From: Pseudomonadota bacterium
GTDB taxonomy: Bacteria; Pseudomonadota; Alphaproteobacteria; Rhodobacterales; Rhodobacteraceae
Reading direction: 5' to 3'
Assembly: GCA_039816075.1 (NCBI GenBank)
Contig: JBCBYE010000001.1
Span: forward strand, 1 to 44,603
Length of the DNA stretch: 44,603 nucleotides
Shown here: piece after piece, positions 5,632 through 43,837 of the stretch
Layout of the letters: every line of letters begins with the position of its first letter
How positions within the stretch are numbered: the first letter of the stretch is position 1
Notes under the pieces: model-generated
The model's input: only the letters and a program-made list of their open reading frames with translations
Database searches by the model: none
What the model was told of the DNA's origin: nothing
Made by a program: the position numbers and the translations under genes

Positions 5632-5769
5632 TTCATTTTGATTTCAGGTTTCTTGACGAGGCGCGGCGGGGGCGCGGCAGGGGCGTGGCCCCGGCGCCGC
5701 CGCGGCGATCGAAGAGGGGCGGCCGAGGCCTCGCCATGGTTAAATTTCATTGAATGAACCTTCTATTCA
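5632..5769. promoter_or_regulatory. Cluster of CtrA-like boxes in the divergent TPR / RTX promoter region
   Basis: TTCA-N7-TTCA 5632..5646; TTAA-N7-TGAA 5740..5754 (includes TTAACCAT on the minus strand, 5736..5743); TGAA-N7-TTCA 5755..5769. Confidence 0.5.
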
Positions 5770-6043
5770 TGAGACTGACGGACCCTGCGGGCAAGGGAAT
5801 CGCGAAGGAGAGGCGAGGGTGTCCAGACGGGTCGGAACGCGGTCGGCGTTCGCAACGGCCGCGTCGGAGGGGACGGCGGAGCGGGTCGATCGCTTGGATC
5901 GCCCCGGGATCGGATCCGCATCCCCCGGTCGTTTTGCAGGGATCGGCCGTCTGCGCCGATCGGCGGCCGCAGCCCTGGCGTTCTTAGGCGCGGTTCTGGC
6001 GTTTCCGCCCGCAGGCGTATCCGAGAATGAAGGCGTATCTTTC

Positions 6044-24294: not shown

Positions 24295-24444
24295 GGTGGG
24301 CGAAAGCACGAAAAAAAGCGGATGAAAGCACGAAGATTGGTGGGCGAAAGCACGAAATCCATGCCCGTTATGCTGCATCGCAGCAAGCCCCTGCCTCGCC
24401 GCCGAAAACCCGAATCACCTTGACCGGGGTGGCTGAAAGCACGA
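24295..24444. repeat. Iterons of the putative replication origin
   Basis: GAAAGCACGA at 24302, 24324, 24346 (22-bp period) and 24435; GGTGGGCGAAAGCACGAAA twice; immediately upstream of rep. Confidence 0.75.
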
Positions 24445-24453
24445 GCCTTCGCC

Positions 24454-25689
24454 ATGGCCTCGACCCGCGCGACAGCCCGCCGGCGCCGCTCCGCGCCGTC
24501 CTCCGCCGAAGCGCCGCGCGCCGCGGCCGCGAAGGCCTCCGGACCCGCCGAGGAAGCGGCCCGAGCGGCGGTCGACGTCCTGGCCGCGGACCCCGCCATC
24601 GAAAGCCCGCAGGGCGACCTCGCCGGCCGCCTTCCCGCCCGCCGGGGACAGGCCCCCGCTCCCCGCTCGCCGCTCCTGCCGGACCGCCGCCAACAGGCCG
24701 ACTTCTTCGTCTGCGACATCTTCGATGCCGCGCCCAAGGGCGACATGGCCTCGATGGAGCACCCGGTCTTCTCGCTTTCCACCAAGCCCGACCTCGACGT
24801 GCGCCGCTACGAGAACGGCCCGAACTTCGTGGAGATCACCCCTTCGGTGAAAGGCCTCGCCACTGTCCATGACCGCGACGTGCTGATCTTCTGCATCTCC
24901 CAGGTGATCGCCGCGCTCAACGAGGGCCGGCGCGTCGACCGCCGCGTGCGCTTCAAGGCCTACGATCTGCTGAAGGCCACCAATCGCGGCGCCGACGGCC
25001 GCGGCTATCAGCAGCTGCGCGCCGCGCTGGAGCGTCTGCAGGGCACCGTCATCACCACCAACGTGACCACCGGCGACGAGGAGATCTTCGACGGCTTCGG
25101 CCTCATCGACCGGTTCCGCATCGTGCGCGAAACCCGCGACGGCCGCATGCAGGACATCGAGATCACGCTCTCCGACTGGGTCTTCAACGCGCTGGAGGCG
25201 CGCGAGGTGCTGACCCTGCACCGCGACTATTTCCGGCTGCGCAAACCCCTCGAACGCCGCCTCTACGAGCTGGCGCGCAAGCATTGCGGCGCCCAGTCGG
25301 AATGGCGCATCGGTCTGGAAAAGCTGCGGATGAAATGCGGGTCGACGAGTTCCCCGAAGGAATTCCGCCGCATGGTGCGCCGCGTGGCGGAAGAAGACGC
25401 CGCCCACGCCCACATGCCCGATTACGCGATGGAGCTGGCCTCGCGCGACGTGGTCATCTTCCGCTCCCGCGGCACGGTCCCGGTTCCCCTGACCGACGAG
25501 CTCTACGAGGGCCCCCTCCCCCCCGACGCCCATGCCGAGGCCCGCCAGGCCGCCCCCGGCTGGGACGTCCACGCGCTGGAGCAGGAATGGCGCAGGTGGT
25601 GCGGCAAGGAAGAGATCGAGCCCAAGCGGCCGGGCAGGCACTTCGTGAAGTTCTGCGCCAGCTGGGCGGAGCGGCGGGGGGCGGGGTGA
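24454..25689 (+). CDS. repA: Plasmid replication initiator protein A (RPA family, Rhodobacterales RepA type)
   Basis: QADFFVCDIFDAAPKGDMASMEHPVFSLSTKPD, GLATVHDRDVLIFCISQ, RDYFRLRKPLERRLYELARKHCG; exact start uncertain. Confidence 0.9.
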   Translation: MASTRATARRRRSAPSSAEAPRAAAAKASGPAEEAARAAVDVLAADPAIESPQGDLAGRLPARRGQAPAPRSPLLPDRRQQADFFVCDIFDAAPKGDMASMEHPVFSLSTKPDLDVRRYENGPNFVEITPSVKGLATVHDRDVLIFCISQVIAALNEGRRVDRRVRFKAYDLLKATNRGADGRGYQQLRAALERLQGTVITTNVTTGDEEIFDGFGLIDRFRIVRETRDGRMQDIEITLSDWVFNALEAREVLTLHRDYFRLRKPLERRLYELARKHCGAQSEWRIGLEKLRMKCGSTSSPKEFRRMVRRVAEEDAAHAHMPDYAMELASRDVVIFRSRGTVPVPLTDELYEGPLPPDAHAEARQAAPGWDVHALEQEWRRWCGKEEIEPKRPGRHFVKFCASWAERRGAG

Positions 25690-25822
25690 CCCCCGCCTCG
25701 GGTCCTTCTGCCGAACCCTGACCCGGGGGTGGTTCGGGCCCCGTCGCGCGTGGCGAACCCGAGCCCGACGCGGGTTGGGGTTGGGGTTGAGGTTGTTGTT
25801 TCAGGCCGAGCCGCAGGCGGAG

Positions 25823-25840
25823 ATTTCCCCGCGGGGAAAT
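25823..25840. promoter_or_regulatory. parS-like palindrome upstream of parA
   Basis: ATTTCCCCGCGGGGAAAT, same as the palindromes in the parA 3' region. Confidence 0.65.
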
Positions 25841-25923
25841 CCCCGTCGGCCCGCTTTCGGCCGACGGGCCCTCGGCCTAAGCTGCGGCGGACCCGGCCCG
25901 CGGCTCAGGAGACCTCCCGCCTC

Positions 25924-27759
25924 ATGCCCGATCATCGCGATCTCGCCGCGCTGCAGGCGCGGTCGCTCAGGCTGCAGGAGCGGGTGCGGCAGCAGACCTA
26001 CTCGCCCGACAACGAAAAGGCGCTGCGCCGGTTCTCGGCCTGGGAGACGGCGGAGTTCGTGCTGCGGCTCTCCCCCGCCGATCTGCGCCGGGCGCTGGCC
26101 GAGGATCCGGCGCTTCCCCGCGGGGACGTGGCGCCGGGGGGGCAGCGCTGGTTCCGGGCGGAGGAGGTGGAGGCGCTGCGCCGGGCGCTCGCCCCCGGGC
26201 GGGGGCCGGGGCGGCCGCAGGGGCGGCGGGCCATCCGGGCGGCCGTGGCCAACTTCAAGGGCGGCGCCGGCAAGTCGACCGTGGCGCTGCATCTGGCCCA
26301 TGGGGCGGCGCTCGACGGGTGGCGGGTGCTGCTGGTGGATTGCGATCCGCAGGCCACCCTCAGCCACGCCATGGGCATCACGGACGCCCAGGAGGATGCC
26401 ACGGTCTGGGGCATCATGGCGCGGGATCTGGCGCGGGCCACGCGGGCGCTGAACGCCTCGCCGCCGGCGGCGGCCTCGGGGCGGCGCCCTGCCCTGCGGC
26501 GGGTGCCCGAGGCGATCGAGGCGCTGGGCCTCGAAACCCGCGATCCGGCGGACTTCATCCGCCCCACCGCCTGGCCGTCGATCGACATGATCCCGTCCTG
26601 CGCCAACGCCGCCTTCGTGGAATTCGCCACGGCGCAGTACCGGCATCTCAACCCCGACTGGGCGTTCTTCGCGGCGCTCTCGCGGTATCTCGACGGGCTG
26701 ACGGACGAGGCCTTCGACCTGATCCTGTTCGATTGCCCGCCGGCCATCGGCTACCAGTCGATCAACGCGGTCTTCGCCGCCGACATGCTGCTGATCCCCA
26801 CGGGGCCGGGCTATTGGGAATACGATTCCACCACCTCCTTCATCGGTCAGCTGGCCGAGGCGCTGGAGGATCTGGCGGCCGGGGCGGAGCAGGGCGCGCC
26901 GCTGCCCACGGGCCGGGTGACCCTGCCCAAAAGCTTCGCGGCGATGCGGGTTCTGCTGACCCGGATGGAGCCGGGCAACGCCCTGCACGAGGCCATGCGC
27001 GGGGCCTATGCCCAGGTCTTCGGCGCGACGCTGTGCGCGGCGGAGGTGGAGCATACGCGGGCGGTGGAGCAGTCCGGCCGCTTCCTCTGCTCGGTCTACG
27101 AAATGGATTATCGGGACATGACGCGGGAGACCTGGAAGCGGGCGCGGCGCAGCTTCGACGCGGTCTGGGACGAGGTCCGGGGCGTGCTGGAGGAGGCCTG
27201 GGAGGCGGTTCCCCGGTCCGATTTCCCCGCGGGGAAATCGGGGGCGGCGCCGGCGGGGACGGCCGAGGACGCCGCGGAGGATGTCCCCGCGGGGAAAGAG
27301 GGTCGACGGGATTTCCCCGCGGGGAAATCCCCGTCCGTGGCGCCGGGAGCTCAGGCCGGGGAAACCGCGACGGATGTCCCCGCGGGGAAAGGCGGGGGAA
27401 AGGATCAGTCCGGCGGATCGGGGAGCCGGGCCGAGGCCTGGGCGCCGCGCTCGGACAAGATCTCGGAGGAGTTCCCCGCGGGGAAAGACGGTCGAAAGGA
27501 TTTCCCCGCGGGGAAATCCCCGGGGACCGATGGTTGCGGGGATATCCGGGCGCCGGGCGCCTCCGCTGCGGCCCCGGGGACACGGCCGCCGGAAACGCGC
27601 GAGGATTTCCCCGCGGGGAAACCTGACGCTAAGCTTTTCCCCGCGGGGAACTCCGTGTGGATATCGGCGGGGAATACCGCGGGGGCCTCGGCGGGGAATG
27701 CCCCGGGGGCATCGGCGGGCAGTTCCCCGGGGACCCCGAGGACGGAGGACGAGACATGA
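25924..27759 (+). CDS. parA: ParA (type Ia) partition ATPase with a long repeat-encoded C-terminal extension
   Basis: N-terminal HTH-like region; ANFKGGAGKST, LVDCDPQATL, ILFDCPP; stop overlaps parB ATG (ATGA). Confidence 0.9.
   Translation: MPDHRDLAALQARSLRLQERVRQQTYSPDNEKALRRFSAWETAEFVLRLSPADLRRALAEDPALPRGDVAPGGQRWFRAEEVEALRRALAPGRGPGRPQGRRAIRAAVANFKGGAGKSTVALHLAHGAALDGWRVLLVDCDPQATLSHAMGITDAQEDATVWGIMARDLARATRALNASPPAAASGRRPALRRVPEAIEALGLETRDPADFIRPTAWPSIDMIPSCANAAFVEFATAQYRHLNPDWAFFAALSRYLDGLTDEAFDLILFDCPPAIGYQSINAVFAADMLLIPTGPGYWEYDSTTSFIGQLAEALEDLAAGAEQGAPLPTGRVTLPKSFAAMRVLLTRMEPGNALHEAMRGAYAQVFGATLCAAEVEHTRAVEQSGRFLCSVYEMDYRDMTRETWKRARRSFDAVWDEVRGVLEEAWEAVPRSDFPAGKSGAAPAGTAEDAAEDVPAGKEGRRDFPAGKSPSVAPGAQAGETATDVPAGKGGGKDQSGGSGSRAEAWAPRSDKISEEFPAGKDGRKDFPAGKSPGTDGCGDIRAPGASAAAPGTRPPETREDFPAGKPDAKLFPAGNSVWISAGNTAGASAGNAPGASAGSSPGTPRTEDET
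27221..27650. repeat. Array of eight parS-like palindromes (T/G)TCCCCGCGGGGAA within parA
   Basis: CCCCGCGGGG cores at 27225, 27285, 27315, 27378, 27474, 27504, 27609, 27639; extra copies at 25827, 26116, 29103. Confidence 0.85.
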
Positions 27760-29036
27760 GCCGGCGCAAGCTGTTCGAGATCGATCTGCCGCCCGACCCC
27801 GAGGTGGACGAGACGGCGACGGACGAGACGGCGGCGGAGGCGGGCGGGCGCCCTGCCCCCGGGCTCGAAACCAAATCCGCAGGCTTCGGCGACGGCCGCG
27901 ACGCATCGACCCCCGACCGCGGAGCGTCCCCATCGACCCCCGGCCGCGGAGCGTCCATATCCGGGCCCGGCCGCGGGCCGTCCATATCAGGGCCCGGCCG
28001 CGGGCCCATGGCCTCCGCCGTGCGCGAAACCCTGCGCGCGCGCCTGACCCGCGCCGAGGACGAGGCCGCCGTCGCCGCGGAGAACCACGCCCTCGCCGAA
28101 GAGCTGCTGCGCCTGAAGGCCGAGGGCCTTTTCGCCGAACGCGTGCCCCTGGACCTGATCGACGAGACCCGCCTGACCCGCGACCGCCGCGCCCAGGCCG
28201 CGCCGGACGTGGAGGACCTCAAGACCTCGATCCGCGAGACGGGCCTGTCCAACCCCATCCGGGTGGAGCGGGCCGGCGCCCGATACGAGCTGATCCAGGG
28301 CTGGCGGCGCCTGCGCGCCTTCCGCGCCCTGCTGGCCGACACCGGCGCGGCGCAATGGGCGACGATCCCGGCCGCCGTGGAGCCCGAGGGCGGCGACCTG
28401 GAGCTCGCCTATCGCCGCATGGTCGACGAGAACCTGGTGCGCGAGGACATCTCCTTCGCCGAAATGGCCGAGCTGGCGCGCGCCTATGCCGATGATCCGC
28501 GCACCGGCGCCGACACGGCGGCCGAGGCGACGGGCGCGCTCTATCGCTCCGCCGGCGCGCAGAAGCGCAGCTACATCCGCGCCTTCGCCGAGCTGCTGGA
28601 GATGCTGGACGGCGCCCTGGCGCATCCGCAGGCCCTGCCCCGCAGCCTGGGCCTGGACCTGCGCCGCGTGCTGGCCGCCACGGGCCCCCAGGGCGCCGCG
28701 ACCCTGCGCCGGGGCCTGGAGAAGCGGCCCGAGCGCGACGCGGCCGAGGAGACGGCGTTCCTGCGCCGCTTCGTGACCACGGCGCTGGAGACCGTGGCGG
28801 ACATCGCCCGGCGCGGCGGCGCCGAGGACCCGTCGCGGATCGAGCCGCCGGCGGTTCCGCGCCTGGGCCGCCCCCCGGCGCCGGCGCTGGAGGTGCGGCT
28901 GGAGGGGTCGGGCCTGCGCGCGGTGCTCAAGGCCGGGCGGCTGGAGATGAGCGGGCTGGGCGCGGCGGCGGAGGACCTGGACGAGGCGCGCCTGCGCGCC
29001 GCGCTGGAGGCGTTCGAGAGAGCGCTGCGGGGCTAG
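27756..29036 (+). CDS. parB: ParB/RepB/Spo0J partition protein
   Basis: GGAGG RBS; LKTSIRETGLSNPIRV, YELIQGWRRLRA, MVDENLVREDISFAE. Confidence 0.9.
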   Translation: MSRRKLFEIDLPPDPEVDETATDETAAEAGGRPAPGLETKSAGFGDGRDASTPDRGASPSTPGRGASISGPGRGPSISGPGRGPMASAVRETLRARLTRAEDEAAVAAENHALAEELLRLKAEGLFAERVPLDLIDETRLTRDRRAQAAPDVEDLKTSIRETGLSNPIRVERAGARYELIQGWRRLRAFRALLADTGAAQWATIPAAVEPEGGDLELAYRRMVDENLVREDISFAEMAELARAYADDPRTGADTAAEATGALYRSAGAQKRSYIRAFAELLEMLDGALAHPQALPRSLGLDLRRVLAATGPQGAATLRRGLEKRPERDAAEETAFLRRFVTTALETVADIARRGGAEDPSRIEPPAVPRLGRPPAPALEVRLEGSGLRAVLKAGRLEMSGLGAAAEDLDEARLRAALEAFERALRG

Positions 29037-29201
29037 GGCCGGGGGGGTGGGGCCGGCGGGGGCGCCTGGCCTGAAACGCCCGGCGCCGGATCCCTGCCGG
29101 TTCCCCGCGGGGACCCGGCGCCGGGCAGGGCGGTCGGGCCCCCCTCGGCCCCCGCCCGTTCGGTCCGGTTCCGTCCGGTCCTGTTCCGTGGGGGGGGCGC
29201 C

Positions 29202-29924
29202 TCAGGCGGCGCGGCGGCGCCTGACCCAGCCGGCCAGGGCGAAGGCGCTCGCCGTCAGCACGATCCCCGCGGGGACGGGCATGGCATGGACCGAGACCAG
29301 ATCCTGCGCGTCCGGATCGTTGGCCTGGCCGTTCCACAGCGTGAGCTGGAACCGCTTGGGACCCGCATAGGCGGCGGCGTCGGCGAGATACCGGTTGGCC
29401 AGGGTCGAGACCTGCGCGCGGCCGGAGGTCATCTTGAAGAAGTCCGTGCCCGAGCCGGTCGTCACGTCGCCGTCGGTGTCGTAGACCGAGTCCCAGATCG
29501 CCGCCTGGAAGGCCGCCGATGCGTCGTGGTTCACCCCGGTTTCGAAGACAGCCGTGTCGTAGACCGCGTCGAACAGGGATTGCAGCCGCGCCAGCGCCGC
29601 GGTCGGGATCGGCGAGGGCGACGTCGCGTAGTCGATCGGGTTGGTCACCGGGGGCGTGCCGCCGGAGATGTAGTCGAACAGATCGATGCACCAGGCGACG
29701 AAGCTGTCGGTCGTGCCGTGATGGGACATGGTGAAGGCGCCGGCGCTGGCCCCGCCCGAGGCGCTTTCCCCCGGGGCCGGCCAGCCGGCGGCCGCCGACC
29801 AGCCGATGTTGCGGCGGCCATGGTCCTGCCCGTCGAAATCGAGCTGCACGGTGGTCGCGGCGGCGGCCGAGGCCGCCAGGCCCGCCGCGGCGAGCGCGGC
29901 GGCGAAGATGGATGCGTGTCGCAT
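29202..29924 (-). CDS. VPLPA-CTERM exosortase substrate with a thioester-domain-like core
   Basis: Ala-rich signal peptide; SFVAWCIDL, AAFQAAIWD, AQDLV; C-terminal MPVPAG + TM + RRRR. Confidence 0.85.
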   Translation of the reverse strand: MRHASIFAAALAAAGLAASAAAATTVQLDFDGQDHGRRNIGWSAAAGWPAPGESASGGASAGAFTMSHHGTTDSFVAWCIDLFDYISGGTPPVTNPIDYATSPSPIPTAALARLQSLFDAVYDTAVFETGVNHDASAAFQAAIWDSVYDTDGDVTTGSGTDFFKMTSGRAQVSTLANRYLADAAAYAGPKRFQLTLWNGQANDPDAQDLVSVHAMPVPAGIVLTASAFALAGWVRRRRAA

Positions 29925-29985
29925 GGAGCCTCCCCAAGCTCTTGAAGACTGCGGAGCGCCCGACGCGACACGGCGCGATTCGAAA

Positions 29986-30011
29986 TGAAATTCGTGTGAA
30001 GCTTACATGAA
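29986..30011. promoter_or_regulatory. Three TGAA half-sites at 11-bp period upstream of the first VPLPA-CTERM gene
   Basis: TGAA at 29986, 29997, 30008. Confidence 0.45.
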
Positions 30012-30233
30012 AATCGGGCGAAAATCCGGCCGAGGACGGGGCAGGGCGCGGGGCGGCGCCTTAAGCCATGAAATAATTGATTTTTTTGATATGTTGCAGC
30101 GCAGTATTCGCGGCGCGGTCCGGCCGTGGGGACTTGGCGGTCTTGCGAGGGCGTCTTGCGGGGCCGTCAGGTCTGCTCGAGCGCCGGGTCGCGAGGACTT
30201 CAGGCTTGCCGCGTGGCGGCGTTTCCTTATGCG

Positions 30234-30255
30234 CCCCGACGGCGGGGTTTTTTTT
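30234..30255 (+). terminator. Intrinsic terminator-like hairpin with U-tail on the + strand
   Basis: CCCCG-ACGG-CGGGG followed by T8; orientation opposite to both flanking genes. Confidence 0.4.
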
Positions 30256-31006
30256 ATGCGCCGCCCCGACGGCGGCGACGCACCAGCGCCGCCAGGCCGA
30301 AGCCGCCCAGCAACAGCATCGCGCCCGCGGGCAGGGGCATGGAGATCGCCACCAGGCTCTGCGTGTTGGAGGCGCGGCCGTCGTATTCCACCAGCTTCAC
30401 CGTGGGCGTCGGGCCGGCGAAGTCGCGCGCCAGGGCCAGATAGGCGTTGGCCTGCTTGCGCACCGCCCAGTGGTTCTGGGACTGCCAGCCGTCGCGGATC
30501 TTGAAGTAATCCGGCTCGGACGGGTCCGACACCTTCTTCCAGTGGAAGTCGCCCGCATCCCAGTCGTCGTCGTAGATCGCGTCCCAGATCGCCACCTGGA
30601 AGGCGGCGGTCTTGACCTGGCTGGCGAGCACCGCGTCCTCGTCGTAGGCGGCGGCGAAGAGCCGTTCGAGATCGCCGCGCTGTTCGGTCGTGAGCACGTT
30701 CTGCCGCACATAGGTGCGCGACGTCCCTTCCTGGTGCAGCGACGTGGCGATGTCGATGCACCAGGCGATGAAGGATTTGCCCGGATTGGTGCCGGTCACG
30801 CTGAAGGTGCCGGCATAGGCGTGGAAGTTCTGCGCCTCGCCCCCGGCGCGGGCCTGCACGCGCACGACGCGCGACCCCGCCTCGAACCCGTCGAAGGTGA
30901 GGTCGGTCGTCGTCGTGGCCAGAGCGGACCCGGCGCTCAGCGCCAGGGTCGTGCCGGCGGTCAGCGCCAGGGCGGCCGCGGCGGTCCATCGCGTAAGGGC
31001 GTGCAT
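30254..31006 (-). CDS. VPLPA-CTERM exosortase substrate with a thioester-domain-like core (paralog of 29202..29924)
   Basis: Signal peptide; SFIAWCIDI, AAFQVAIWD, TQSLV; C-terminal MPLPAG + TM + RRRRR; alternative start 31036. Confidence 0.87.
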   Translation of the reverse strand: MHALTRWTAAAALALTAGTTLALSAGSALATTTTDLTFDGFEAGSRVVRVQARAGGEAQNFHAYAGTFSVTGTNPGKSFIAWCIDIATSLHQEGTSRTYVRQNVLTTEQRGDLERLFAAAYDEDAVLASQVKTAAFQVAIWDAIYDDDWDAGDFHWKKVSDPSEPDYFKIRDGWQSQNHWAVRKQANAYLALARDFAGPTPTVKLVEYDGRASNTQSLVAISMPLPAGAMLLLGGFGLAALVRRRRRGGA

Positions 31007-31100
31007 GCTCGGATTTCCCCCATCCGTGCCTGACATCGAAAGCTACGCGACGATTCGAATACGCTGTAATCTCTTCTAGCGTGTATCAGGCGCGCGGGGG

Positions 31101-31193
31101 TGAATGAAAGCTGAATCTTGGTTGACGTTCAAAGGGCCGTCACATTCCGAAAGCGGTTGTTCGAATCGCCGGCTGCCGTTAAGAGAGCATTAA
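31101..31193. promoter_or_regulatory. CtrA consensus box plus a TGAA array between divergent VPLPA-CTERM genes
   Basis: GTTAA-GAGAGCA-TTAA 31178..31193 equals TTAA-N7-TTAAC on the minus strand; TGAA/TGAA/TGAC at 31101, 31112, 31123. Confidence 0.65.
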
Positions 31194-31284
31194 GATTTGA
31201 TGTGAGGGTCGCGTATTTCGCCCGCCGCATGTTTCCGGGGTCGCGTCGGTTGACCTCTTGAACGTTGCCCTTGGGGGTGCAGCC

Positions 31285-31914
31285 ATGAAATTCGCGACTT
31301 GGGCCGCTGCCGCGGTCCTTTCCATCGCCCCGTTCGCCGCGCAGGCGGTGACGACGACCGAGGTCGGCGACCTCGACTACACGACGAACGGTCACGCCCT
31401 GCAGCTGTGGGAGATGACCGACGGCACGGACACGGCGACCGCGTCCGGCACCGTGACGACGGACGGGATCACCTTCGATCCGTTCGTGCAGGTTCTGAAC
31501 GATCTCTCCAACGGATCTCTTCTGACGGGCGAGCTCATCACGGGTCCGGCCTCCACCACCGCCGGTTCGGTCAAGTTCAAGTTCCAGGCCGTGGGCTCGG
31601 GCCTGGTGGCGACCAACTTCTCGACCGAAAGCCCGCTGGCGGCGTGGACCGGTCTTGAGATCTCGTGGCTGGATTCGAGCATGAACGTGCTGAGCACGCT
31701 CGACTCGAACTTCAACAGCACGACGCTCTTCACCACCTTCGCCGAGGGCGACGAGCAGTTCCTCGTGGCCTCGTGGGACGGCTACACGAACAACGGCAGC
31801 AACCTGGATTTCCGGGTCGAAGCCGCCATCCCCGTGCCCGCCGGCGTCCTGCTGATCGGCACCGCGTTCCTCGCCGCCGGCGCCGCGCGCCGCTTCGGCC
31901 GCAAGGCGGCCTGA
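31285..31914 (+). CDS. VPLPA-CTERM exosortase substrate, Ser/Thr-rich, Cys-free
   Basis: Signal peptide ending AQA; C-terminal IPVPAG + TM + RRFGRK. Confidence 0.85.
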   Translation: MKFATWAAAAVLSIAPFAAQAVTTTEVGDLDYTTNGHALQLWEMTDGTDTATASGTVTTDGITFDPFVQVLNDLSNGSLLTGELITGPASTTAGSVKFKFQAVGSGLVATNFSTESPLAAWTGLEISWLDSSMNVLSTLDSNFNSTTLFTTFAEGDEQFLVASWDGYTNNGSNLDFRVEAAIPVPAGVLLIGTAFLAAGAARRFGRKAA

Positions 31915-31953
31915 GCGACGGCGGACGGCCTCGCCCGTGCGGTAAACCATGAA

Positions 31954-31983
31954 AAGGGGCCGTTCCGCGGCCCCTTCGCTTTG
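31954..31983 (+). terminator. Intrinsic terminator
   Basis: AAGGGGCCG-TTCCG-CGGCCCCTT stem-loop 40 nt after the stop, weak U-tail. Confidence 0.6.
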
Positions 31984-32010
31984 CGAGGCTTGCCGCAACG
32001 GCTCAAATAT

Positions 32011-32027
32011 ATGAACATTTGGTTCAT
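32011..32027. promoter_or_regulatory. Palindromic ATGAA-N7-TTCAT box upstream of the priming transferase
   Basis: ATGAACATTTGGTTCAT; same pattern as 5754..5770. Confidence 0.45.
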
Positions 32028-32103
32028 GTTTTAGAGATTCGGACCCGCAGGGCGGGGCCTGCGCTCCGAAACGCCGCCGCGATCATCTGCAGGGGGATGC
32101 AGC

Positions 32104-32790
32104 ATGAACCGACAGGGCTTCGCCGAGACCTTGGACCTCGCCGCGCCGGCGCCCGCCGAGCGCGCCGAGCGCGATCTGGCCGCCGGCCTCTACGCCCGCC
32201 GCGGCAAGCGCGCGCTCGACACCGTCCTGATCCTGCTCGCCGCGCCCTTCGTGCTGCCGGTCGTCGCCCTGCTGGCGCTGCTGGTGGCGCTGGACGGCGG
32301 GCCGGCCTTCTACGGGCAGACGCGCCTGGGCAAGGGCGGCCGGCCCTTCACCTGCTGGAAGCTGCGCTCCATGGCCGTGGACGCCGACGCGCGCCTCGCC
32401 GCGCTGCTGGCCGAGGATCCCGCCGCCGCCGCCGAATGGGCCCGCAGCCAGAAGCTGAGCCGCGATCCGCGCATCACGCCCCTGGGCCGCCGGCTGCGCG
32501 CGGTCAGCTTCGACGAGCTGCCGCAGCTGTGGAACGTGCTGCGCGGCGAGATGGCCCTGGTGGGCCCGCGCCCCATGACGCCCGAGCAGGCGCCGATCTA
32601 TCCCGGCCGCGCCTATTTCGCGGTGCGCCCGGGGCTGACCGGGCCCTGGCAGGTCTCCGAACGTCACGAGAGCGCCTTCGCCGGCCGCGCCGGCTACGAC
32701 GCCGCCTATGTGCGCGACCTGTCCCTGGCCTCCGACATCCGCCTGCTGGCCCGCACCGTCGGCGTGGTCCTGCGCGGGCAGGGGGCCTGA
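32104..32790 (+). CDS. Priming sugar transferase (ExoY/WcaJ-type phosphoglycosyltransferase)
   Basis: KRALD, one TM, FTCWKLRSM, DPRITPLG, DELPQLWNVLRGEMALVGPRP, RPGLTGPWQV. Confidence 0.95.
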   Translation: MNRQGFAETLDLAAPAPAERAERDLAAGLYARRGKRALDTVLILLAAPFVLPVVALLALLVALDGGPAFYGQTRLGKGGRPFTCWKLRSMAVDADARLAALLAEDPAAAAEWARSQKLSRDPRITPLGRRLRAVSFDELPQLWNVLRGEMALVGPRPMTPEQAPIYPGRAYFAVRPGLTGPWQVSERHESAFAGRAGYDAAYVRDLSLASDIRLLARTVGVVLRGQGA

Positions 32791-33114
32791 GCGGGGGGGC
32801 GTCGGGCGTTCAAAACCCCAAGGCTTGCATGTGAACACCGCACCTTTACAGCGAGGCTATCCGAAATCGGTCAAAACGACTGGCCAAGGCTCCGGCTCGC
32901 TATGATCCGGGTCGGAAAGGCCGTCGAGACACGCTCGATCCGTAGATCCTCGCTCAGATAACTGGGTTCTTGCGGGTGTCCAGCTCATGTGGACCCACAA
33001 CAGAGCGTAGGCTATTGATATGTGCTGAATTCAAAATAATAACAATATCTTGTTGATCAGTATTATAGGAATCCACCCACATAATGAATGCTGCATTTTT
33101 CACTTTGAAATAAA

Positions 33115-34773
33115 CTAAAAATCTCTCAAGTATAATATCCAGTAAATGCCCCCCCTATAATATGAGAAATTCGTATCAATATAGGCCTCATACATTTCGA
33201 AAGTTGCCTCGCCACCCCTTGGGATCATCAAGAATCCTACGCCCTGAAACATTGCCCCTGGTTCTATGTATTGGGACTGGGTGAACGAGCGTCCCTCGTG
33301 CAGCCAGATCGGGGTTCCCGGCGGGGAGGGCTGGTTCAGCAGCATCGGGAAGGGATTGGCGAAGGCCAGCGTCGCCACGCGGCCGGCCCCCGGGTCTTGG
33401 GCGCCCGCGGCCCGCAACGCCTCGAGGCCGGCGAGAACGCCGGCGCGTCCGTCGGGAACCGAGTTCAGCAGGCCGGTCGGCTGCTCGATCAGATAGGGCT
33501 CGAATCTCAGATCGGCGTAAGGCGTTCCGGCGAAGGCAGGATCCGGACCGTTCAGACGATATTGCAGCCGCTGTCCGACATGCATGCCGATGTCGACGAT
33601 CGGATAGAAAGAAACGAACATGACGGCGCCCGAGACCAGAACGCGCGCCCGAGCATCGAAGGCGCGGTCGTTCGCCGCCGGGCCGCGCAGTCGGTTCGTC
33701 CATTCCAGCGCGACGAGCGGAACCAGCGGATAGACGGCCGCCTCGAACGCGTAGTGGTTCTGCATCAGGATCGCGCAGCCCGCGCCGGCCAGCAGCGACA
33801 TGAACGCGATCGGTCGTAGAAACTCCGCGGCCTCCGCCAGCCGCAGGGGCCGGGATGGAAAGCGCTCGACGGTCGCGAGATAGGCGATGGCCCCGATGAT
33901 GCCATAGAGCGCCATTTCGCCGAACTGCGCGAACAGCTTTCTCAGCCGCAATCCGTTCGCGGGCATCTGCGCGGTCGTGGCGAGATCCTTGAAATAGGCC
34001 GACACCTGCCCCGTGCCGGCCTCGAAAACGCCGAGGGTGGCGATGAACGCGACTATGATGAACAGGCTGTCGCGCCGGGACTCGGAGATCAACACGAAGC
34101 GTGCGCCTGCCAAGCCCAGCGCCGCAGCGCCGTACGTGACCTTGAGCATGAGCAAAAGCGCTATGGCGAGGCCCAAGACCAGATCGGCCCAGGGATCGCG
34201 GCGATGGGGAAGAACCAGCCGCAGCGCGACGGGGATGAAAAGCGCCCAGGCCCAGCGGTTGTAGGGCGCGAGGAAATGCATGGCCGCGTCGCTCAGCACT
34301 TCGCCGTTGCCGCGCCCGGACACGGCGACGGTCGCCACCGAGAGCAGAACGATGGAGAGCCCCAGCAGGCTCATCTGCCGTCGGAGCATGATCACGGTGA
34401 GCAGGAGCGCCAGAAGCCCGGCGAGGGCGCCGGCATGCATGACGGTCGAGGCCGTCGGCGTGCTGTCGAGCGCCGCCGCCAAGCCGTAGACATGGTAATA
34501 GACCGGCCCGATCGGACTGAAGAAGTCCACGCTTGAAAGCAGACCATGCCGGGCCTTGTTCAGAGCCTCCGTGGCGGTCCAGAAATCTCCGAAGTAACCA
34601 TCGTGGTTGAAATAAATGCCCTCGGCGAGCCCGGCCAGGCAGAGCGCTGCCGCGGCTCCGACAAGATTGAGCGCCGCCATGTTGGCGAAGTACCGACCTG
34701 GCGTCGAAAACGTTATGAAGGCTGCGGCAATGATGAACGCCGTGGCCGTCAGATAGACGGCGAGCATCATCAT
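33115..34773 (-). CDS. Polytopic membrane protein, probable GT-C (lipid-phosphate-sugar-dependent) glycosyltransferase
   Basis: About 11 or more hydrophobic segments; first loop GD...G...VDFFSPIGP resembles GT-C loop 1; last gene of an operon starting with GtrA and a DPM-like GT2. Confidence 0.55.
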   Translation of the reverse strand: MMMLAVYLTATAFIIAAAFITFSTPGRYFANMAALNLVGAAAALCLAGLAEGIYFNHDGYFGDFWTATEALNKARHGLLSSVDFFSPIGPVYYHVYGLAAALDSTPTASTVMHAGALAGLLALLLTVIMLRRQMSLLGLSIVLLSVATVAVSGRGNGEVLSDAAMHFLAPYNRWAWALFIPVALRLVLPHRRDPWADLVLGLAIALLLMLKVTYGAAALGLAGARFVLISESRRDSLFIIVAFIATLGVFEAGTGQVSAYFKDLATTAQMPANGLRLRKLFAQFGEMALYGIIGAIAYLATVERFPSRPLRLAEAAEFLRPIAFMSLLAGAGCAILMQNHYAFEAAVYPLVPLVALEWTNRLRGPAANDRAFDARARVLVSGAVMFVSFYPIVDIGMHVGQRLQYRLNGPDPAFAGTPYADLRFEPYLIEQPTGLLNSVPDGRAGVLAGLEALRAAGAQDPGAGRVATLAFANPFPMLLNQPSPPGTPIWLHEGRSFTQSQYIEPGAMFQGVGFLMIPRGGEATFEMYEAYIDTNFSYYRGGIYWILYLRDF

Positions 34774-35537
34774 GGGGGATATCCCAAGGCGAGGCGGCGC
34801 GCAGCCTCGGGAGGATCGGCGATGAACGCATCGACCTGATCCGGCGTGCCCAGCATGCCTACATCGTCCAGCCGCACCTGGGAGATGCGGACCGTCGCGC
34901 CGTCGGCGATCAGCTGGTTGTAGAGCGGGGCCACGTAGCGCTCTCCCTTTTCCTCGCGGCCGGCCACGCCGTAATAGGCGTGATAGGCCTCCACGTAGCG
35001 GCGGGCGCTGTCGAACCAGTAAAGCCCGACCGTCGCATGATCCGAAATCCGGCGCTTTTCGCGCAGTTCGACGACGTCGCCGCGCGCGTCGAGCCGGGCG
35101 AAGGACCAGCCGTCGCCTGGGGCCGGAAAGCAGGGAATCCAGCCGGCGCAGTCCTGGGGAGAGGGCGGCGCCATCGCCCGCGGGGCGACGAAGGTGTCGA
35201 TGTTGTAGATCGCGAACGGCGCGTCCTGCGGCGCGGACCGGGCCAGCAGAAGCGCGGTCGTCGCCTGCCCGTCGGTCATCTCCTCGATCGTCGCGACCTC
35301 GGCCTCGGCGATGCCGAGCGCGCCGAGCCGCGTGGGGATGTAGTCCGTCGCCCCAAGCTCGCCCCGCACGGCGAAGGCGAAGCGCCAGCCGGCGGCGCGG
35401 AACGCCTCGAGGCTCAGCATCGACCAGTCGAACAGCGGCCTGCCGAGCGCGTCGACCTCGTATTTCGGCCTGTCGTATCCGGCCTTGGCGAAACGGCTGC
35501 CGAGGCCGGCCATGGTGATCGCGAGCGTGCCGCTCAT
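34770..35537 (-). CDS. Nucleotidyltransferase-like protein (BcbE/BcbG/Kfo-type capsule gene)
   Basis: ITMAGLGSRF..AGY..PK, TDGQATT, IYNIDT, EKRRIS.HATVGLYWF, LGTP; ATGA overlap with upstream gene. Confidence 0.8.
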   Translation of the reverse strand: MSGTLAITMAGLGSRFAKAGYDRPKYEVDALGRPLFDWSMLSLEAFRAAGWRFAFAVRGELGATDYIPTRLGALGIAEAEVATIEEMTDGQATTALLLARSAPQDAPFAIYNIDTFVAPRAMAPPSPQDCAGWIPCFPAPGDGWSFARLDARGDVVELREKRRISDHATVGLYWFDSARRYVEAYHAYYGVAGREEKGERYVAPLYNQLIADGATVRISQVRLDDVGMLGTPDQVDAFIADPPEAARRLALGYPP

Positions 35538-35971
35538 GGACGATCGTCCTCGCGCTTGCGGCCGGTCTCGGCCGTCTTGGCCAGGCGGTCGCGTTCGACC
35601 AAGGCGTTCAGCGCGTCGAAATCGAGCTCCACGAACTCCCGAGGCCGCACGGCGCGGTCGTCGATGTAGAAGCCCTGACGGCCCGGCCAGGGCTTGGCCA
35701 GATGAAGCTCGTCGAACGGAACGTCGTGCTCCGCGAGCCATCGCAGCATGTCCGGCGCGACATGCTTGCCGATCCGCCCGACATTGCCCTCGTTGCTGCG
35801 CATGCCGCGGGCCGAGTGGAGAATGATCCGCCAGCCTTCGGCGTGCAGCGCGCGCAGCTTGGCGAGCATCCGCGGTTCGGGCGGCATGTCGGCATAGCGC
35901 TCGCCCGGCCGTTTGATCGGGCACAGCGTGCCGTCGACGTCGACGACGAGGGCCTTCTCTTCTTCAATCAT
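35534..35971 (-). CDS. HAD-IIIC phosphatase, EcbF/BcbF capsule-biosynthesis family
   Basis: VVDVDGTLC, ILHSARGM, VPFDELHLAKPW, FYIDDRAVRP. Confidence 0.88.
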   Translation of the reverse strand: MIEEEKALVVDVDGTLCPIKRPGERYADMPPEPRMLAKLRALHAEGWRIILHSARGMRSNEGNVGRIGKHVAPDMLRWLAEHDVPFDELHLAKPWPGRQGFYIDDRAVRPREFVELDFDALNALVERDRLAKTAETGRKREDDRP

Positions 35972-37430
35972 CGATCCCCTCCAGCTCTTCGATGATGTCC
36001 CGCGCGATGAGGGCGAAGCCCAGCAGCTTTCCCTGATGGTCCAGATGCAGCGGCAGCATGGACAGGAACAGCGACGCCTCCACGGCGCGGACATGGCGAT
36101 AGCGCCAGCCCTCCGCCTCGAGGCGGTCGCGGAACCTGCGCTTCATCCAGTCGGGCGCTCCGCCCCGATGGAGCCGCGCCTCGAGCGCGAGGTCGGCGTC
36201 GACTTCGATGGAGAACAAGCCGTTGTTCACGAAGTCGTAGCCGCCGCAGATGGAGTGCGAGAACTTGGCGATGTCGTAGAGCGGATGCATCAGCCCCTCC
36301 TCCCGCCGCGTCGCCCCGCGGGGGTCGATGAGGCGCATGAGGCCGATCCGCCGGTCGAAGAGAATGTTCGAAAGGCAGGGATCGCCGTGGCTGAAGGCCA
36401 GATGATCGGCGCCGTGATCGGCGAGGGCCCTGTCGATCAGCGGCGCCGCGCGGCGCCTGAGGCCGGCCAGCCCTTCGTCGATGGCCCCGGCCGCCAGATA
36501 GGCGTCGACGCGCCGCCCGACCTCGGCGTCCGCGAAGCGCTCCAGACGATCGTTCATCTTCCGCAGGATCTGTTCGCGACCGCGCTCCAGCACGGCCGGG
36601 GCGTCGAGCGGTTCGCGCGCGCGCGTCGCGGCGTAGGCGAAGAACTGGTCGAGCAGCTGATCGAAATGCGCCTCCGAGAAGGCGCCTAGCACGAACTGAA
36701 GCGCGGCGTCGGGAACCCTCAGGTTCTCCATCCTGTAGGACGCGTCGTCCGGGCCTTCCTCGTAGCCGAAGGTCGGCAGAAGGAACCGGCGCATCGCCGG
36801 AGGCGCCAGCTCGAAGAAGTCATGCTCGGCACGCATCTTGGCGATGTCGGTCGAGCTTTTGACGAAGACGTCGCCATCCGCCGAGAGGCTGTTGAAGGCC
36901 CGCGTTTCCGTCGCGCCCGCCAGAAAGCGTCGAAGCGATCCGGCCTGACGCAGATCGACGAATTCCAGCTGATGGGACGTGCGGGCCGCTTCGCCGGCGA
37001 GCTGCAGCATGAAGGAGCGCTTGTCCCTGGCCGAGCGCATCGACAGCAGCGCGGCGGCATCGGCCGGGAACAGCACGGTCGGCGCCTCGTCCTCGAAGAC
37101 CGGTCCGAGGAGCATCGGCCGCAGCGCGTAGCGCATCTTGCGGATCAGGAAGCCGAGCTGCTCCATGTCGAGCGGCGCCGCGACCACGGGAAGCCGAAGC
37201 CAAAGGGTGTCGCCGCGCGCCGCTTCCATCCGCGCGACGACATGGTCCGCATCCTGGTCGGTGCGCAGCACCATGGTTTCGTCGGCGCCGGCGGCCGCGG
37301 CGAGCAGTTCGTCGAGATAGCGGCGCCGGCGGCGAAGCAGGTCGCCGAAATGGACGTCGCCGATCAAGCGTTCGAGCTCCGCCGGAGGCGGTTCCCGATC
37401 GTCGATGACGGCGAACAGCTGGGGTCTCAT
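35964..37430 (-). CDS. APH/choline-kinase-fold phosphotransferase (capsular biosynthesis kinase)
   Basis: TRAFNSL, K..AE, Brenner motif HGDPCLSNIL, LIDPRG, YDIAKFSHS, LFLSMLPLH; ATGA-coupled. Confidence 0.8.
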   Translation of the reverse strand: MRPQLFAVIDDREPPPAELERLIGDVHFGDLLRRRRRYLDELLAAAAGADETMVLRTDQDADHVVARMEAARGDTLWLRLPVVAAPLDMEQLGFLIRKMRYALRPMLLGPVFEDEAPTVLFPADAAALLSMRSARDKRSFMLQLAGEAARTSHQLEFVDLRQAGSLRRFLAGATETRAFNSLSADGDVFVKSSTDIAKMRAEHDFFELAPPAMRRFLLPTFGYEEGPDDASYRMENLRVPDAALQFVLGAFSEAHFDQLLDQFFAYAATRAREPLDAPAVLERGREQILRKMNDRLERFADAEVGRRVDAYLAAGAIDEGLAGLRRRAAPLIDRALADHGADHLAFSHGDPCLSNILFDRRIGLMRLIDPRGATRREEGLMHPLYDIAKFSHSICGGYDFVNNGLFSIEVDADLALEARLHRGGAPDWMKRRFRDRLEAEGWRYRHVRAVEASLFLSMLPLHLDHQGKLLGFALIARDIIEELEGIDD

Positions 37431-38401
37431 GAGGCGACCGAGCGCATCGCATGCGCCGTTGCGGGAACGCGCCGCGGCTCGTGGCGACGCCGCGCCAGAT
37501 AGACCATCGCCACGACCGGCCATGGCAGCATCACCACGACGGTGGACACCGCCAGCGCGGCGCGCAGCAGCGGGTCGTCGCCCATGTTCCACCAGGATGC
37601 GGACAGGCGGGACCCGAGCAGATCGAACGCCTCGGCCATTTCGGCGAACACGCCCGCCGCCGTGCCGTTCACCAGCATCAGGCAGGCCAGAAGCTCGCAC
37701 GACCACACCAGAAACGAGATGACGCACAATTCAGGGGCCCGCTTGCCGGCCACATGGGCGGCGTGCGTGACGACCACGCGGACGGCATCGATGTGGCGCA
37801 AGACCTCCAGGACGCGCGGATTGTTGTGCGTGGCGACGATGTAGTGCTGCAGCTCCGTGAGAATGCGCGGACCGACGACGACGATGGTCAGGGGCACGAC
37901 CGCGGCGAACAGGGTGAACGCCGCCAGCATGGCGGGCGCGCTGTCCAGCGACAGCAGGATCACAAGCAGCGGCACGAGAAAGATCGCATCGAACATGCGG
38001 TCGATGAGCAGCATGGCCGCCGCGTAGACCGCCGCGCCGCTCAGTCTCCAAAGCTCGTGAAGCCGCAGCAGTTCGCCGGACTTGAACGGCAGAACCAGCG
38101 CGATCGGCGCCGTGGCCAGATGCATCAGCGCGGCGGTGCGGCCGGACACGCCCAGCAGATCGATGGACAGCAGCGCCAGGCGGACGGCGCGCAGACCATG
38201 GCTCGTCAAGTACAGAAGGCCGGCCGACAGGATCGCGATCCACGGCAGATCCTGCAGGAACGGGCGCAGAAGGGCGAAGACCAGGCCGGTCGCCGCGAGA
38301 AGCAGCGCGAAGGCTGCTGCACGCGCCCAGGACGCGCGCGCCCGTCGCCGCAGGTCGGAGCCGACGGCCTGCGCCGCGCCCGAAGGCCGCCTGGCCGTCA
38401 T
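37427..38401 (-). CDS. Lysylphosphatidylglycerol-synthase TM domain / flippase-like membrane protein
   Basis: LRAVRL, LPFKSGELLR, LIDRMFD motifs; multiple TMs; ATGA-coupled to upstream GT2. Confidence 0.7.
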   Translation of the reverse strand: MTARRPSGAAQAVGSDLRRRARASWARAAAFALLLAATGLVFALLRPFLQDLPWIAILSAGLLYLTSHGLRAVRLALLSIDLLGVSGRTAALMHLATAPIALVLPFKSGELLRLHELWRLSGAAVYAAAMLLIDRMFDAIFLVPLLVILLSLDSAPAMLAAFTLFAAVVPLTIVVVGPRILTELQHYIVATHNNPRVLEVLRHIDAVRVVVTHAAHVAGKRAPELCVISFLVWSCELLACLMLVNGTAAGVFAEMAEAFDLLGSRLSASWWNMGDDPLLRAALAVSTVVVMLPWPVVAMVYLARRRHEPRRVPATAHAMRSVAS

Positions 38402-39192
38402 GGGTCCCATCGCGCAATCACGGTCGACGGGTAGGCCGTGCGCGGCGTCGCGCGGTGATCTTCCTCGAAGAAGCGCCGCTGGTTCGCGATCCGCCTCCAG
38501 AGCAGCCGCAAAAGCTGAAAGCCCATGCGCCCCAGCTTGGCGTTGGAGATCTGGTCTTCTTCACGCCATGTGAGCGGAAAAAACTTCAAAGAGGCGTTCC
38601 GGGCGGCAACAGCCAATATCAGATAGTAGTTGAAGGTGAGATCATCAGAAAATTTACGGTGAAACCCGTCGTTGAATGCTGATACCCTGAACATGTTCAA
38701 ACCTGATCCAAGGTCGTAAAGGCGCTTTTTTGATATTGCAGAAAAAATGACGTTGAACACTCTGTTCGCCATCGTCCTGACAAAAGAATATCCTTTCAGC
38801 TTCGACCCCTTCATGAAACGGGCGCCCATCAAGAAGTCAAACTTTTCATGATCGCCCGCTTCGATCCGCGGCAGCAGGTCTTCGATCGATCCCTGGTCGT
38901 CGCCATGCAGGACGACGAGATGGTCGAAGCCTGCATCGCGGGCGAAGTCTATCGCCACCTTGTGAGACCCGCCCAATCCGTAATTGTCATCGTTCCTGAG
39001 AAGCGCTCGGACGGGAATCCGCACCGATGGAAGGGACGCGCGCGCCGCATCGCGCGTGGCATCCGTCGAGCCGTTGTCGATGCATATGATGCCGTCGAAG
39101 AAACGCGCGATATCCGCATCTTCGAAACTTCGAAGAACCCGGACGATCTGCGTTTCACAGTTATACATCGGAATGAAAACCAATATCGACAT
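38398..39192 (-). CDS. GT2, polyprenol-phosphate glycosyltransferase-like (GtrB/DPM1-like)
   Basis: FIPMYN, IDNGSTDAT, NYGLGG, LHGDDQ, GARF, YDLGSG. Confidence 0.85.
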   Translation of the reverse strand: MSILVFIPMYNCETQIVRVLRSFEDADIARFFDGIICIDNGSTDATRDAARASLPSVRIPVRALLRNDDNYGLGGSHKVAIDFARDAGFDHLVVLHGDDQGSIEDLLPRIEAGDHEKFDFLMGARFMKGSKLKGYSFVRTMANRVFNVIFSAISKKRLYDLGSGLNMFRVSAFNDGFHRKFSDDLTFNYYLILAVAARNASLKFFPLTWREEDQISNAKLGRMGFQLLRLLWRRIANQRRFFEEDHRATPRTAYPSTVIARWDP

Positions 39193-39200
39193 TCTGAACC

Positions 39201-39668
39201 TTACCTCGCCTCATTTCGAGTCTTGGGCGGCATCGCCGCCAAACCTTTCATGAAGAAAAAATTGGCGATGAGGCTGATCGGCGCGATCAGAAGCTTCGCG
39301 ACGGCGACCGCCATGGATCTCACCTCCGCCGCCGCGATGTCGAGCAGGTCGGCGACCGCGGAAAACACGGCGACCCGTCCTTCGGTCATCATGCGGGAGA
39401 GGAACGCAACCGCTGCTGCGGCGACCAGAATGGAAAACACCTGCCAGATCAGATATTTTAAATAATTACCTGCATATTTTGCGTACTGACTGTCGCTGAA
39501 TATAAAATACGACATGAAGTATACGAATGTCACGCCTGTCAACGATCCCATCCAGCTTGCGGCGAAGAAACCTGCGCCCAGATAGGCCGCAGCGGCCGAA
39601 GCCGATACATCCAGAAGCAAGCCCAGCCCCGATATGGCGGCGAACCTTATGAATTTTTCGGACACCAT
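39201..39668 (-). CDS. GtrA-family small flippase
   Basis: KFIRFAAISGLGLLLD, four TMs, AKLL....ANFF. Confidence 0.8.
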   Translation of the reverse strand: MVSEKFIRFAAISGLGLLLDVSASAAAAYLGAGFFAASWMGSLTGVTFVYFMSYFIFSDSQYAKYAGNYLKYLIWQVFSILVAAAAVAFLSRMMTEGRVAVFSAVADLLDIAAAEVRSMAVAVAKLLIAPISLIANFFFMKGLAAMPPKTRNEAR

Positions 39669-39835
39669 TCTATATCTTCACGAAATGACATCCGACATCC
39701 GCCGGGTCGTCCCGCGGCGTTCGATACGTTCGGCGTCGAGCGTGCGGCTTGCCATGACGCATTCCACCATTCTGCATAGTGAGACTCGCTGGCCGGCACC
39801 CTGCGCTTTCCCATACGCCATCAAGGATGTTTTTG

Positions 39836-39850
39836 TGAACTTGCGCTGAA
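39836..39850. promoter_or_regulatory. CtrA-like box in the divergent gtrA / exosortase promoter
   Basis: TGAA-CTTGCGC-TGAA. Confidence 0.4.
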
Positions 39851-40034
39851 AGAACCCCGCCTGCGACACCGCTTTCTTCGCCTTGCGCGTCCGTTGCGAC
39901 ACGTTCGGCAGGCAGGCATGGCCGCCGCGGAGGGCGCGGCGGGACATAGCTTCGTGAACGGGCCGGATGGCGCTTGATCGGCGGTTCCGGCTTGCAGTAT
40001 TCGTTCAGCATAGATTCTTGGGGGAAGCTTTCCG

Positions 40035-41630: not shown

Positions 41631-41922
41631 GGGGGCGGGGCGGCTGAGCCGTCCGACGCGCCCAAGGCGGCCCCTTGATCTTCGGAGCGGCGCGGGCGTG
41701 CCGCTGAAACCGCTCCGACGATCTGCGCGCGGCCGCTGAAAATCGTCGCGCAGGTTTTGCAGGCGCTGCAATCCAAGTCCTCCGACCGGTCCGCACCGAG
41801 CCGCCTTGACGACAAGAGGCGGCCCGGATGCGCGTCGAGGCCAAACGATGCATCCGAACGCGGCGATGCGGCGGACGAAGCGGCTTGATCTGGATCCGCG
41901 GTCGAGCGGTGCGACGCCCGGC

Positions 41923-43719: not shown

Positions 43720-43837
43720 CACGGGCGTTCCTGCGCAGGGCCGCGGTGCGGCGGCGTCGCGTCTGGGTCTAGGCCCGAGGCGTAAAGGTCGGATTGCCGG
43801 GCCGCATCGCCGCGGGCCGGCGCCGACGTGGAGCCGG

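Follow-up and report, generated by a model that had tools for sequence, protein, structure and literature searches.

The closest described relatives of the partition locus presented here are the parAB modules of the DnaA-like replicons of Rhodobacterales, a replicon type that reportedly goes back to Petersen et al. in 2011. The ParA core of such modules (P. aminovorans pAMV3, NZ_LN832562, and R. pomeroyi NC_006569) is 62–66% identical to that of our locus, and they share with it a 4-nt overlap between parA and parB and the same 14-bp palindrome at parAB, mostly located inside the genes. The window, as we call the whole stretch of 44,603 nucleotides that was analysed, differs from them in its RPA-type replicase, in having 12 sites compared to a median of two, and in a ParA tail of 182 aa compared to 4 aa. 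As far as the excerpted texts go, these replicons, which include essential Paracoccus chromids (PMC6209633, PMC3925955), and their PAR region have been described without parS (PMC6209633, PMC3925955, PMC6052148, PMC9025767, PMC5030684, PMC3832669).

Partition sites inside coding sequence are known from other systems, according to the parts of the papers covered here. The parSm of the T. thermophilus HB27 megaplasmid is, like ours, a 14-bp palindrome inside the coding sequence of the par operon and binds its cognate ParB by EMSA, although it is one site in parB, of unrelated sequence, with no array and no protein extension in the text covered (PMC4409726). The parS of alphaproteobacterial repABC plasmids are also 14-bp palindromes, with multiplied sites and sites within ORFs (PMC9040568, PMC11107812), found among other places at the 5' end of repB, and positive selection has been proposed for them even within coding sequence (PMC9040568). 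Their par family, however, is not the same, the multi-site 3parS locus lies in non-coding DNA, and a tail built from sites is not reported in the excerpts of these papers. The sopC of plasmid F (twelve 43-bp repeats, PMC9178275) is likewise a many-site tandem-repeat centromere of a type Ia system, but regularly spaced, downstream of sopB and outside genes, whereas the array in the window is irregular and lies inside parA. Closer analogues of sopC are two of the relatives compared below (L114 and L115), which carry non-coding arrays of 4–5 copies after parB with a regular spacing of 63 bp. In Caulobacter, sites reportedly occur inside essential genes (10.1101/172932), and an Azospirillum preprint (10.64898/2026.09.14.751567) is part of the same comparison literature. 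In the partial texts covered by our literature search we found no description of the palindrome or of a ParA tail built from parS; the founding Petersen papers of 2011 and 2013 were outside its scope and may describe the palindrome. Searching the literature by the exact 14-mer and by FPAGK gave unrelated matches only (maize, for the 14-mer). In-gene parS being already known, what appears to be new here is the size of the array (eight in-frame sites, adding 182 residues), the graded series leading to it and the repeated origins of sites in the tail.

The window is a 44.6-kb contig, the longest among the 872 contigs (N50 6.7 kb) of a genome, G000, that is 93% complete. It carries rep (24454–25689), parA (25924–27759) and parB (27756–29036), all on the plus strand. 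The rep product is a replication initiator of the RPA family (PF10134, Pfam E 2.5e-88) with 60–70% identity to plasmid "replication initiator protein A", and is not a DnaA-like replicase. Upstream, sequence reading revealed four direct repeats GAAAGCACGA on the plus strand (starts 24302, 24324, 24346 and 24435; span 24302–24444; 22 bp spacing among the first three), which are likely the iterons of rep, so that the region resembles an RPA (PF10134) iteron replicon, with the replicase preceded by direct repeats. Two DnaA-like replicase queries gave no tblastn match in G000 (93% complete), for which reason the replicon of the window does not seem to be a DnaA-like one. Its parAB, in contrast, is of the type found beside DnaA-like replicases (167 of 193 scanned sequences have such a replicase), and the region 24302–29036 looks like a module swap in which such a parAB was joined to an RPA replicase and iteron-like repeats. 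No terminal repeat was found on the contig, and a promoter and terminator scan of 25600–29300 gave no match. The cargo (1100–22562 and 29202–43722) contains many polysaccharide genes (glycosyltransferases, Wzz, O-antigen ligase, sulfotransferase, ABC transporter), together with an RTX-repeat protein (5750–8866), a PIN protein (22371) and a resolvase (22960). Two cargo proteins (29202–29924 and 30254–31036) end in a VP/LP-AG + hydrophobic + RRRR motif, presumably PEP-CTERM-like. Elsewhere in the genome (G000:C592:6408-9953) there is another RPA rep, accompanied by a parAB that is divergent and distantly related.

The parA ORF runs from an ATG at 25924, the M1 being almost invariant among orthologs, to a TGA at 27757–27759 and encodes 611 aa. 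Its core (aa 1–429, 25924–27210, plus strand) consists of an N-terminal extension of ~100 aa, with model helices at 39–46 and 51–60 and no HTH match in Pfam, and a Walker-A ATPase (AAA_31, E 7e-25) with the deviant motif KGGAGKS at 112–118, invariant in 40 sequences. The 426-aa ParB (27756–29036, plus strand), encoded after parA, is Spo0J-type, with a GWRR box and HTH (ParB_N E 8.8e-8; alignment to Spo0J 1vz0 over 124–285, GxRR box included). Its N-terminus has a 27-bp x3 repeat of its own (27912–28003) and lacks the site found at codon ~20 in relatives. The deviant Walker A motif, the large ParB with its ParB_N (CTP-binding) domain and HTH, and a palindromic site repeated at the par locus are features of a type Ia ParABS system, and the parAB of the window probably works like one.

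The last 182 codons of the 611-codon parA (27211–27756, plus strand) contain eight in-frame palindromes, (T/G)TCCCCGCGGGGAA, likely parS (27223–27650; here and below, palindromes have no strand assigned). The 14-mers start at 27223, 27283, 27313, 27376, 27472, 27502, 27607 and 27637, six being perfect and those at 27283 and 27376 having G in place of the first T. Their spacings of 60, 30, 63, 96, 30, 105 and 30 bp all keep the parA frame, and the pairs 2–3, 5–6 and 7–8 are copies of one ~59-bp unit. Three 24-bp repeats with degenerate half sites (SAGN, about 27661–27732, plus strand) follow, and the gene closes with the ancestral parA end (27744–27759, plus strand), namely GGAGGA as the parB ribosome-binding site (27744–27749, 6 nt before the parB ATG), the EDET codons and an ATGA in which the parA stop overlaps the parB ATG at 27756. 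Outside the array there is a perfect palindrome ~100 bp upstream of the parA ATG (25825–25838) and a copy with one mismatch ~65 bp after parB (29101–29114), both at typical positions for the family, another with one mismatch in parA core codon 64, in frame +1 (26114–26127), and one with two mismatches overlapping the VPAGI motif of a minus-strand gene (29263–29276), which may be incidental, giving 12 sites in total. The first-pass annotation had already described the eight in-frame palindromes with these spacings, the stop/start overlap, the degenerate SAGN copies and the copies upstream of parA and just after parB, all of which our sequence scan bears out; only the copy at 26114 had been missed.

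Such an accumulation is far from chance, as the 13-mer has 18 strand matches in the window where 0.01 would be expected, a number that none of 100 shuffles reaches. The open frame of the tail is by itself weak evidence, because 18% of 2000 dinucleotide shuffles are stop-free and two of the five other frames are open as well. The spacings are stronger evidence, the five distinct values within the array all being multiples of 3, compared to 4 of the 16 spacings that separate non-coding copies in relatives. Helical phasing of the copies (5.7, 2.9, 6.0, 9.1, 2.9, 10.0 and 2.9 turns apart) is suggestive at most.

Contigs covering the array were available from runs X1–X4, all from one study, X1 being perhaps the source sample; three further runs (X5, X6 and X7), with small shares and the tail uncovered, were left out. 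A single contig of X1 spans the array (25700–27915) with two differences, one of X4 does so (26242–27732) without gaps, and X2 and X3 cover it piecewise. None of the X1–X4 contigs has an early stop in the tail, including around 27210, where a stop, as the first-pass annotation had pointed out, would make the array intergenic; the array is coding. X3 has a 30-bp insertion behind 27219 that constitutes a ninth copy. It combines the palindrome with the linker that elsewhere separates copies 5 and 6, so the repeats appear to have recombined with each other. X2 may carry an in-frame duplication of 72 bp, but at a depth of 4 this signal is too faint to be counted. In the X2 and X3 contigs 13 tail codons are altered (11 non-synonymous, 2 synonymous, 0 stops), some of these tail variants coming from short contigs and so possibly reflecting mis-laid repeats, and the long X2 and X3 pieces have no changes in the adjoining parA core; for X4 the differences given here are a lower bound. 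Only one population is known to carry the 8-copy form. Elsewhere in the locus, the parB 27-bp repeat is shorter by one unit (27 bp) in X4 and shows a net loss of 21 bp in X3, both in frame, and the parA 5' region of X4 is strongly diverged (25962–26112; 40 changes in 233 nt) with the remainder near-identical, which suggests recombination of the N-terminal domain.

To place the array in its family we used 80 genome loci, 80 metagenome loci, 29 family loci, two named plasmid regions and 198 proteins, with near-identical loci counted unmerged; L081 (the window itself) and 5 loci with partial ParA were dropped before any counts, and 26 more without a complete parB before the 160-locus counts below. 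The usual parA tail has 4 residues (136 of the 187 loci whose ParA core is complete; 109 of 198 proteins), and parA and parB overlap by 4 nt in 146 of the 173 loci with a called parB start. Over these 146 loci the consensus ahead of the parB ATG is GGAGGATGAGGCATG, hence the last ParA codons (EDxA) are at the same time the parB ribosome-binding site. Orthologs end alike, in EDxA or EDET plus the ATGA overlap, and the window ends in EDET (EDEA in two strains). As the window keeps this ancestral end motif, the array must have been inserted upstream of the old stop and not created by read-through into an intergenic region. The alignment of orthologs that the first-pass annotation had called for agrees with this, sisters with 0, 1 and 3 copies ending in the same overlap motif. 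A graded series is seen within one clade (SH-aLRT 99), from one copy (P0003, P0004 and L001, 41-aa tail) through three (P0002, 53-aa tail, with which the window groups first) to the eight of the window. The sister rows P0005, L002 and P0007 have tails of 11–26 aa and no site, and most end in xDAA/ESAA-type motifs, like the EDET of the window.

The trees were built from 120 and then 56 of 213 rows, the first with all long-tail rows and the second with all tail-site rows, the rest being sub-sampled. Tail-embedded sites require four changes on the tree, at least three of them forced by well-supported branches, and a single clade of tail-site rows is rejected (p-AU 6e-5, L169 having been put into the group after the tree was viewed). 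The groups are the clade of the window, an LSADK clade with TTATCCGCGGATAA, and P0021; sites in the tail arose about three times. One genome of the same genus has two parAB copies with near-identical one-site tails, L198 (G161:C224) and L199 (G161:C188, the same contig as L001), both on short contigs with no rep found on either, and with extra parA 5' fragments at L199:316 and 1871.

Across the 160 loci with complete parB (window excluded), we scanned from 400 bp ahead of parA to 500 bp beyond parB with eight family 12-mers, a list picked after seeing an earlier palindrome tally. A perfect family palindrome occurs in 124 loci and is absent from the scanned region in 36 (many of them Ruegeria). 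Sites lie inside the parA or parB coding sequence in 96 of 160 loci, specifically in parB (74 loci), in the parA core (60) or in the parA tail (6), and outside the genes they are located after parB (81), before parA (46) or in the parA–parB gap (4, L054, L100, L165 and L169). The parA core site at codon ~328 is in the FPAG frame in 61 of 62 cases; for this position we prefer the DNA counts, the protein-motif count (146 of 198) resting on a loose motif. The median number of sites per locus is 2 and the maximum 9 (L183, which also has a non-coding array after parB), compared to 12 in the window. The notion that parS is normally non-coding therefore fails in this family, with in-gene sites in 96 of 160 loci, and in-gene parS has been published for other systems (PMC4409726, PMC9040568). 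The proposal that the frame is kept to preserve parA–parB coupling is plausible given the overlap in 146 of 173 loci, but coupling cannot be a strict requirement, given the 4 gap-type loci among the 160. The clade of the window lacks both the codon-328 site in parA and the codon-20 site in parB, which suggests that sites shift from one tolerant stretch to another. The window is an extreme, strain-variable form of a family habit, most relatives carrying single copies in the same two genes.

The palindrome is very probably the parS of this ParB family. That it is parS-like, as had been proposed, is consistent with its confinement to parAB and with the ParB helix residues it tracks. Only three copies occur on the complete 740-kb P. 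aminovorans replicon, in a stretch of about 1.1 kb at parB, and the three copies of genome G143 are no more than 3.4 kb away from its parA start. The other three genomes in the same scan have none, at least two of them using other site variants, and seven genomes of the same genus without a match to this ParA also have none. Replicases in relatives are DnaA-like and that of the window is RPA, with the site unchanged, which indicates that the site travels with parAB and not with rep. In 121 distinct ParBs the class of site tracks residues 267, 269 and 300, with L at position 300 in 70 of the 72 CC-class proteins and V in all 41 of the AC class; the ParB of the window has the CC-class residues G267, Q269 and L300. 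Positions 267–269 fall in the stretch aligned to the HTH of Spo0J, and all three in or after the aligned helix, which we take to be the recognition helix. This co-variation is not independent evidence, because it is confounded by kinship (the four classes are related) and the classes are tracked about as well by columns outside the HTH.

There are, in addition, nine perfect copies on eight other G000 contigs (C6:2397, C22:4370, C336:1454, C400:12195, C450:3208, C482:5778, C482:5796, C692:1983 and C718:221), compared to about 0.01–0.02 expected, several in core-gene contexts such as the rpl/rpoB cluster or queA; the copy between rplA and rplJ is common to G161. Genome G157 (87% complete) has four scattered copies, this ParB not being found there, and G006 has three with longer AT-rich arms. 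The scattered copies of G000 and G157 are not accounted for by a plasmid centromere; they possibly reflect binding to the host genome by a plasmid-type ParB.

As a protein, the tail is A/G/P/S/D-rich (19% Ala, 17% Gly, 12% Pro) and hypervariable among strains. AlphaFold gave a confident ParA core and predicted disorder for 434–611, with pLDDT <50, about 30 on average (block means about 26–38), and no secondary structure, the alignment being shallow in this part. GC3 is 0.79 in the tail versus 0.92 in the core, and the mRNA of the tail folds with z = -7. Beyond the FPAGK imposed by the DNA, its amino acids are not conserved, and the predominance of non-synonymous changes (11 of 13 altered codons) fits neutrality at the protein level. 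Codon changes, conservation and the structure model gave no evidence for a tail function. Of the two fates the first-pass annotation had left side by side for a disordered tail, functional or tolerated, the disorder is predicted and toleration looks the better description.

In our opinion the type Ia partition system is probably an ordinary one, with a centromere that expanded in tandem inside the end of parA, selection acting on the sites and the frame, and the tail tolerated. The likely parS of the adjoining ParB would have multiplied by tandem duplication within the last parA codons, upstream of the ancestral stop and the parB ribosome-binding site, producing an eight-site centromere whose predicted translation product is a disordered and probably neutral tail. 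ParB dimers would load on the array and spread, and ParA would then move the plasmid as in any ordinary type Ia system. Changes of length would persist only in multiples of 3, because a frameshift would shift the parA stop off the parB start, with the presumable loss of translational coupling and an untranslated, strongly folded stretch left behind. Selection would thus be on DNA sites and frame, not on amino acids, and the tail sites appear to replace the usual ones at parA codon ~328 and parB codon ~20 that were lost in this clade.

Several other readings have to be weighed against this tandem expansion. An assembly artefact, which repeats near the k-mer length might cause in a metagenome bin as fragmented as this one (872 contigs, N50 6.7 kb), deserves hardly any credence when single X1 and X4 contigs span the array, X2 and X3 cover it piecewise, and P0002 carries three copies. 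An intergenic parS array swallowed after loss of the parA stop, the frame and overlap being coincidental, seems very unlikely and is already largely refuted. An open frame is easily obtained at such GC content (18% of shuffles) and gap-located sites do occur in 4 of 160 loci, but the window ends in the ancestral EDxx and ATGA like its sisters with 0, 1 and 3 copies, its spacings are in frame (5/5 versus 4/16 in non-coding arrays), and the gap of L165 and L169 can still be read in frame as far as the overlap, as would be expected if a stop had been gained rather than lost.

It is also quite unlikely that the palindrome is the site of another protein (the HTH of ParA or a host regulator), an RNA hairpin or a self-spreading mutational hot-spot. 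The nine scattered copies, including the one between rplA and rplJ common to G161, and the four of G157, where this ParB was not found, would fit such a reading, yet all copies are at parAB on the complete replicon and in G143, the seven same-genus genomes without a match to this ParA have none, and the repABC palindromes published for Rhodobacterales have a similar 14-bp TT...AA form (PMC11107812). We further consider unlikely a selected feedback device in which ParB on the junction array blocks or pauses RNA polymerase before parB, copy number tunes ParA:ParB and the tail is perhaps a flexible linker. Such a device would agree with about three origins of junction sites, with sites held at the parB 5' end or in parA in most relatives, with copy numbers that differ between strains, with the role as regulators proposed for repABC sites in the repA/repB region (PMC9040568, in the part covered here), and with the fold of the tail mRNA (z = -7), although palindromes alone would cause such folding; against it stand the lack of amino acid conservation beyond FPAGK and an 8-copy form coming from one population. 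A bolder version, a translated, tunable centromere, appears doubtful to us: junction copies would expand (0, 1, 3, 8, 9) under frame-keeping, ParB loading would throttle its own synthesis, repeat number would be a heritable ParA:ParB dial, and the same ParB may bind the nine host-genome sites.

With tandem expansion in an ordinary type Ia system as the preferred reading, the array does not imply a new partition mechanism. It does put forward a specific site that can be tested as the parS of the parAB module in DnaA-like replicons, in a family whose candidate centromere sites are mostly encoded in the par genes and seem to shift between tolerant stretches. As a natural extreme, the window would lend itself to asking how many sites are needed for a partition complex, and whether ParB loading within the operon that encodes it is put to use or just tolerated. 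A neutral tail would be a clear case of selection at the DNA level making 182 residues of new protein sequence.
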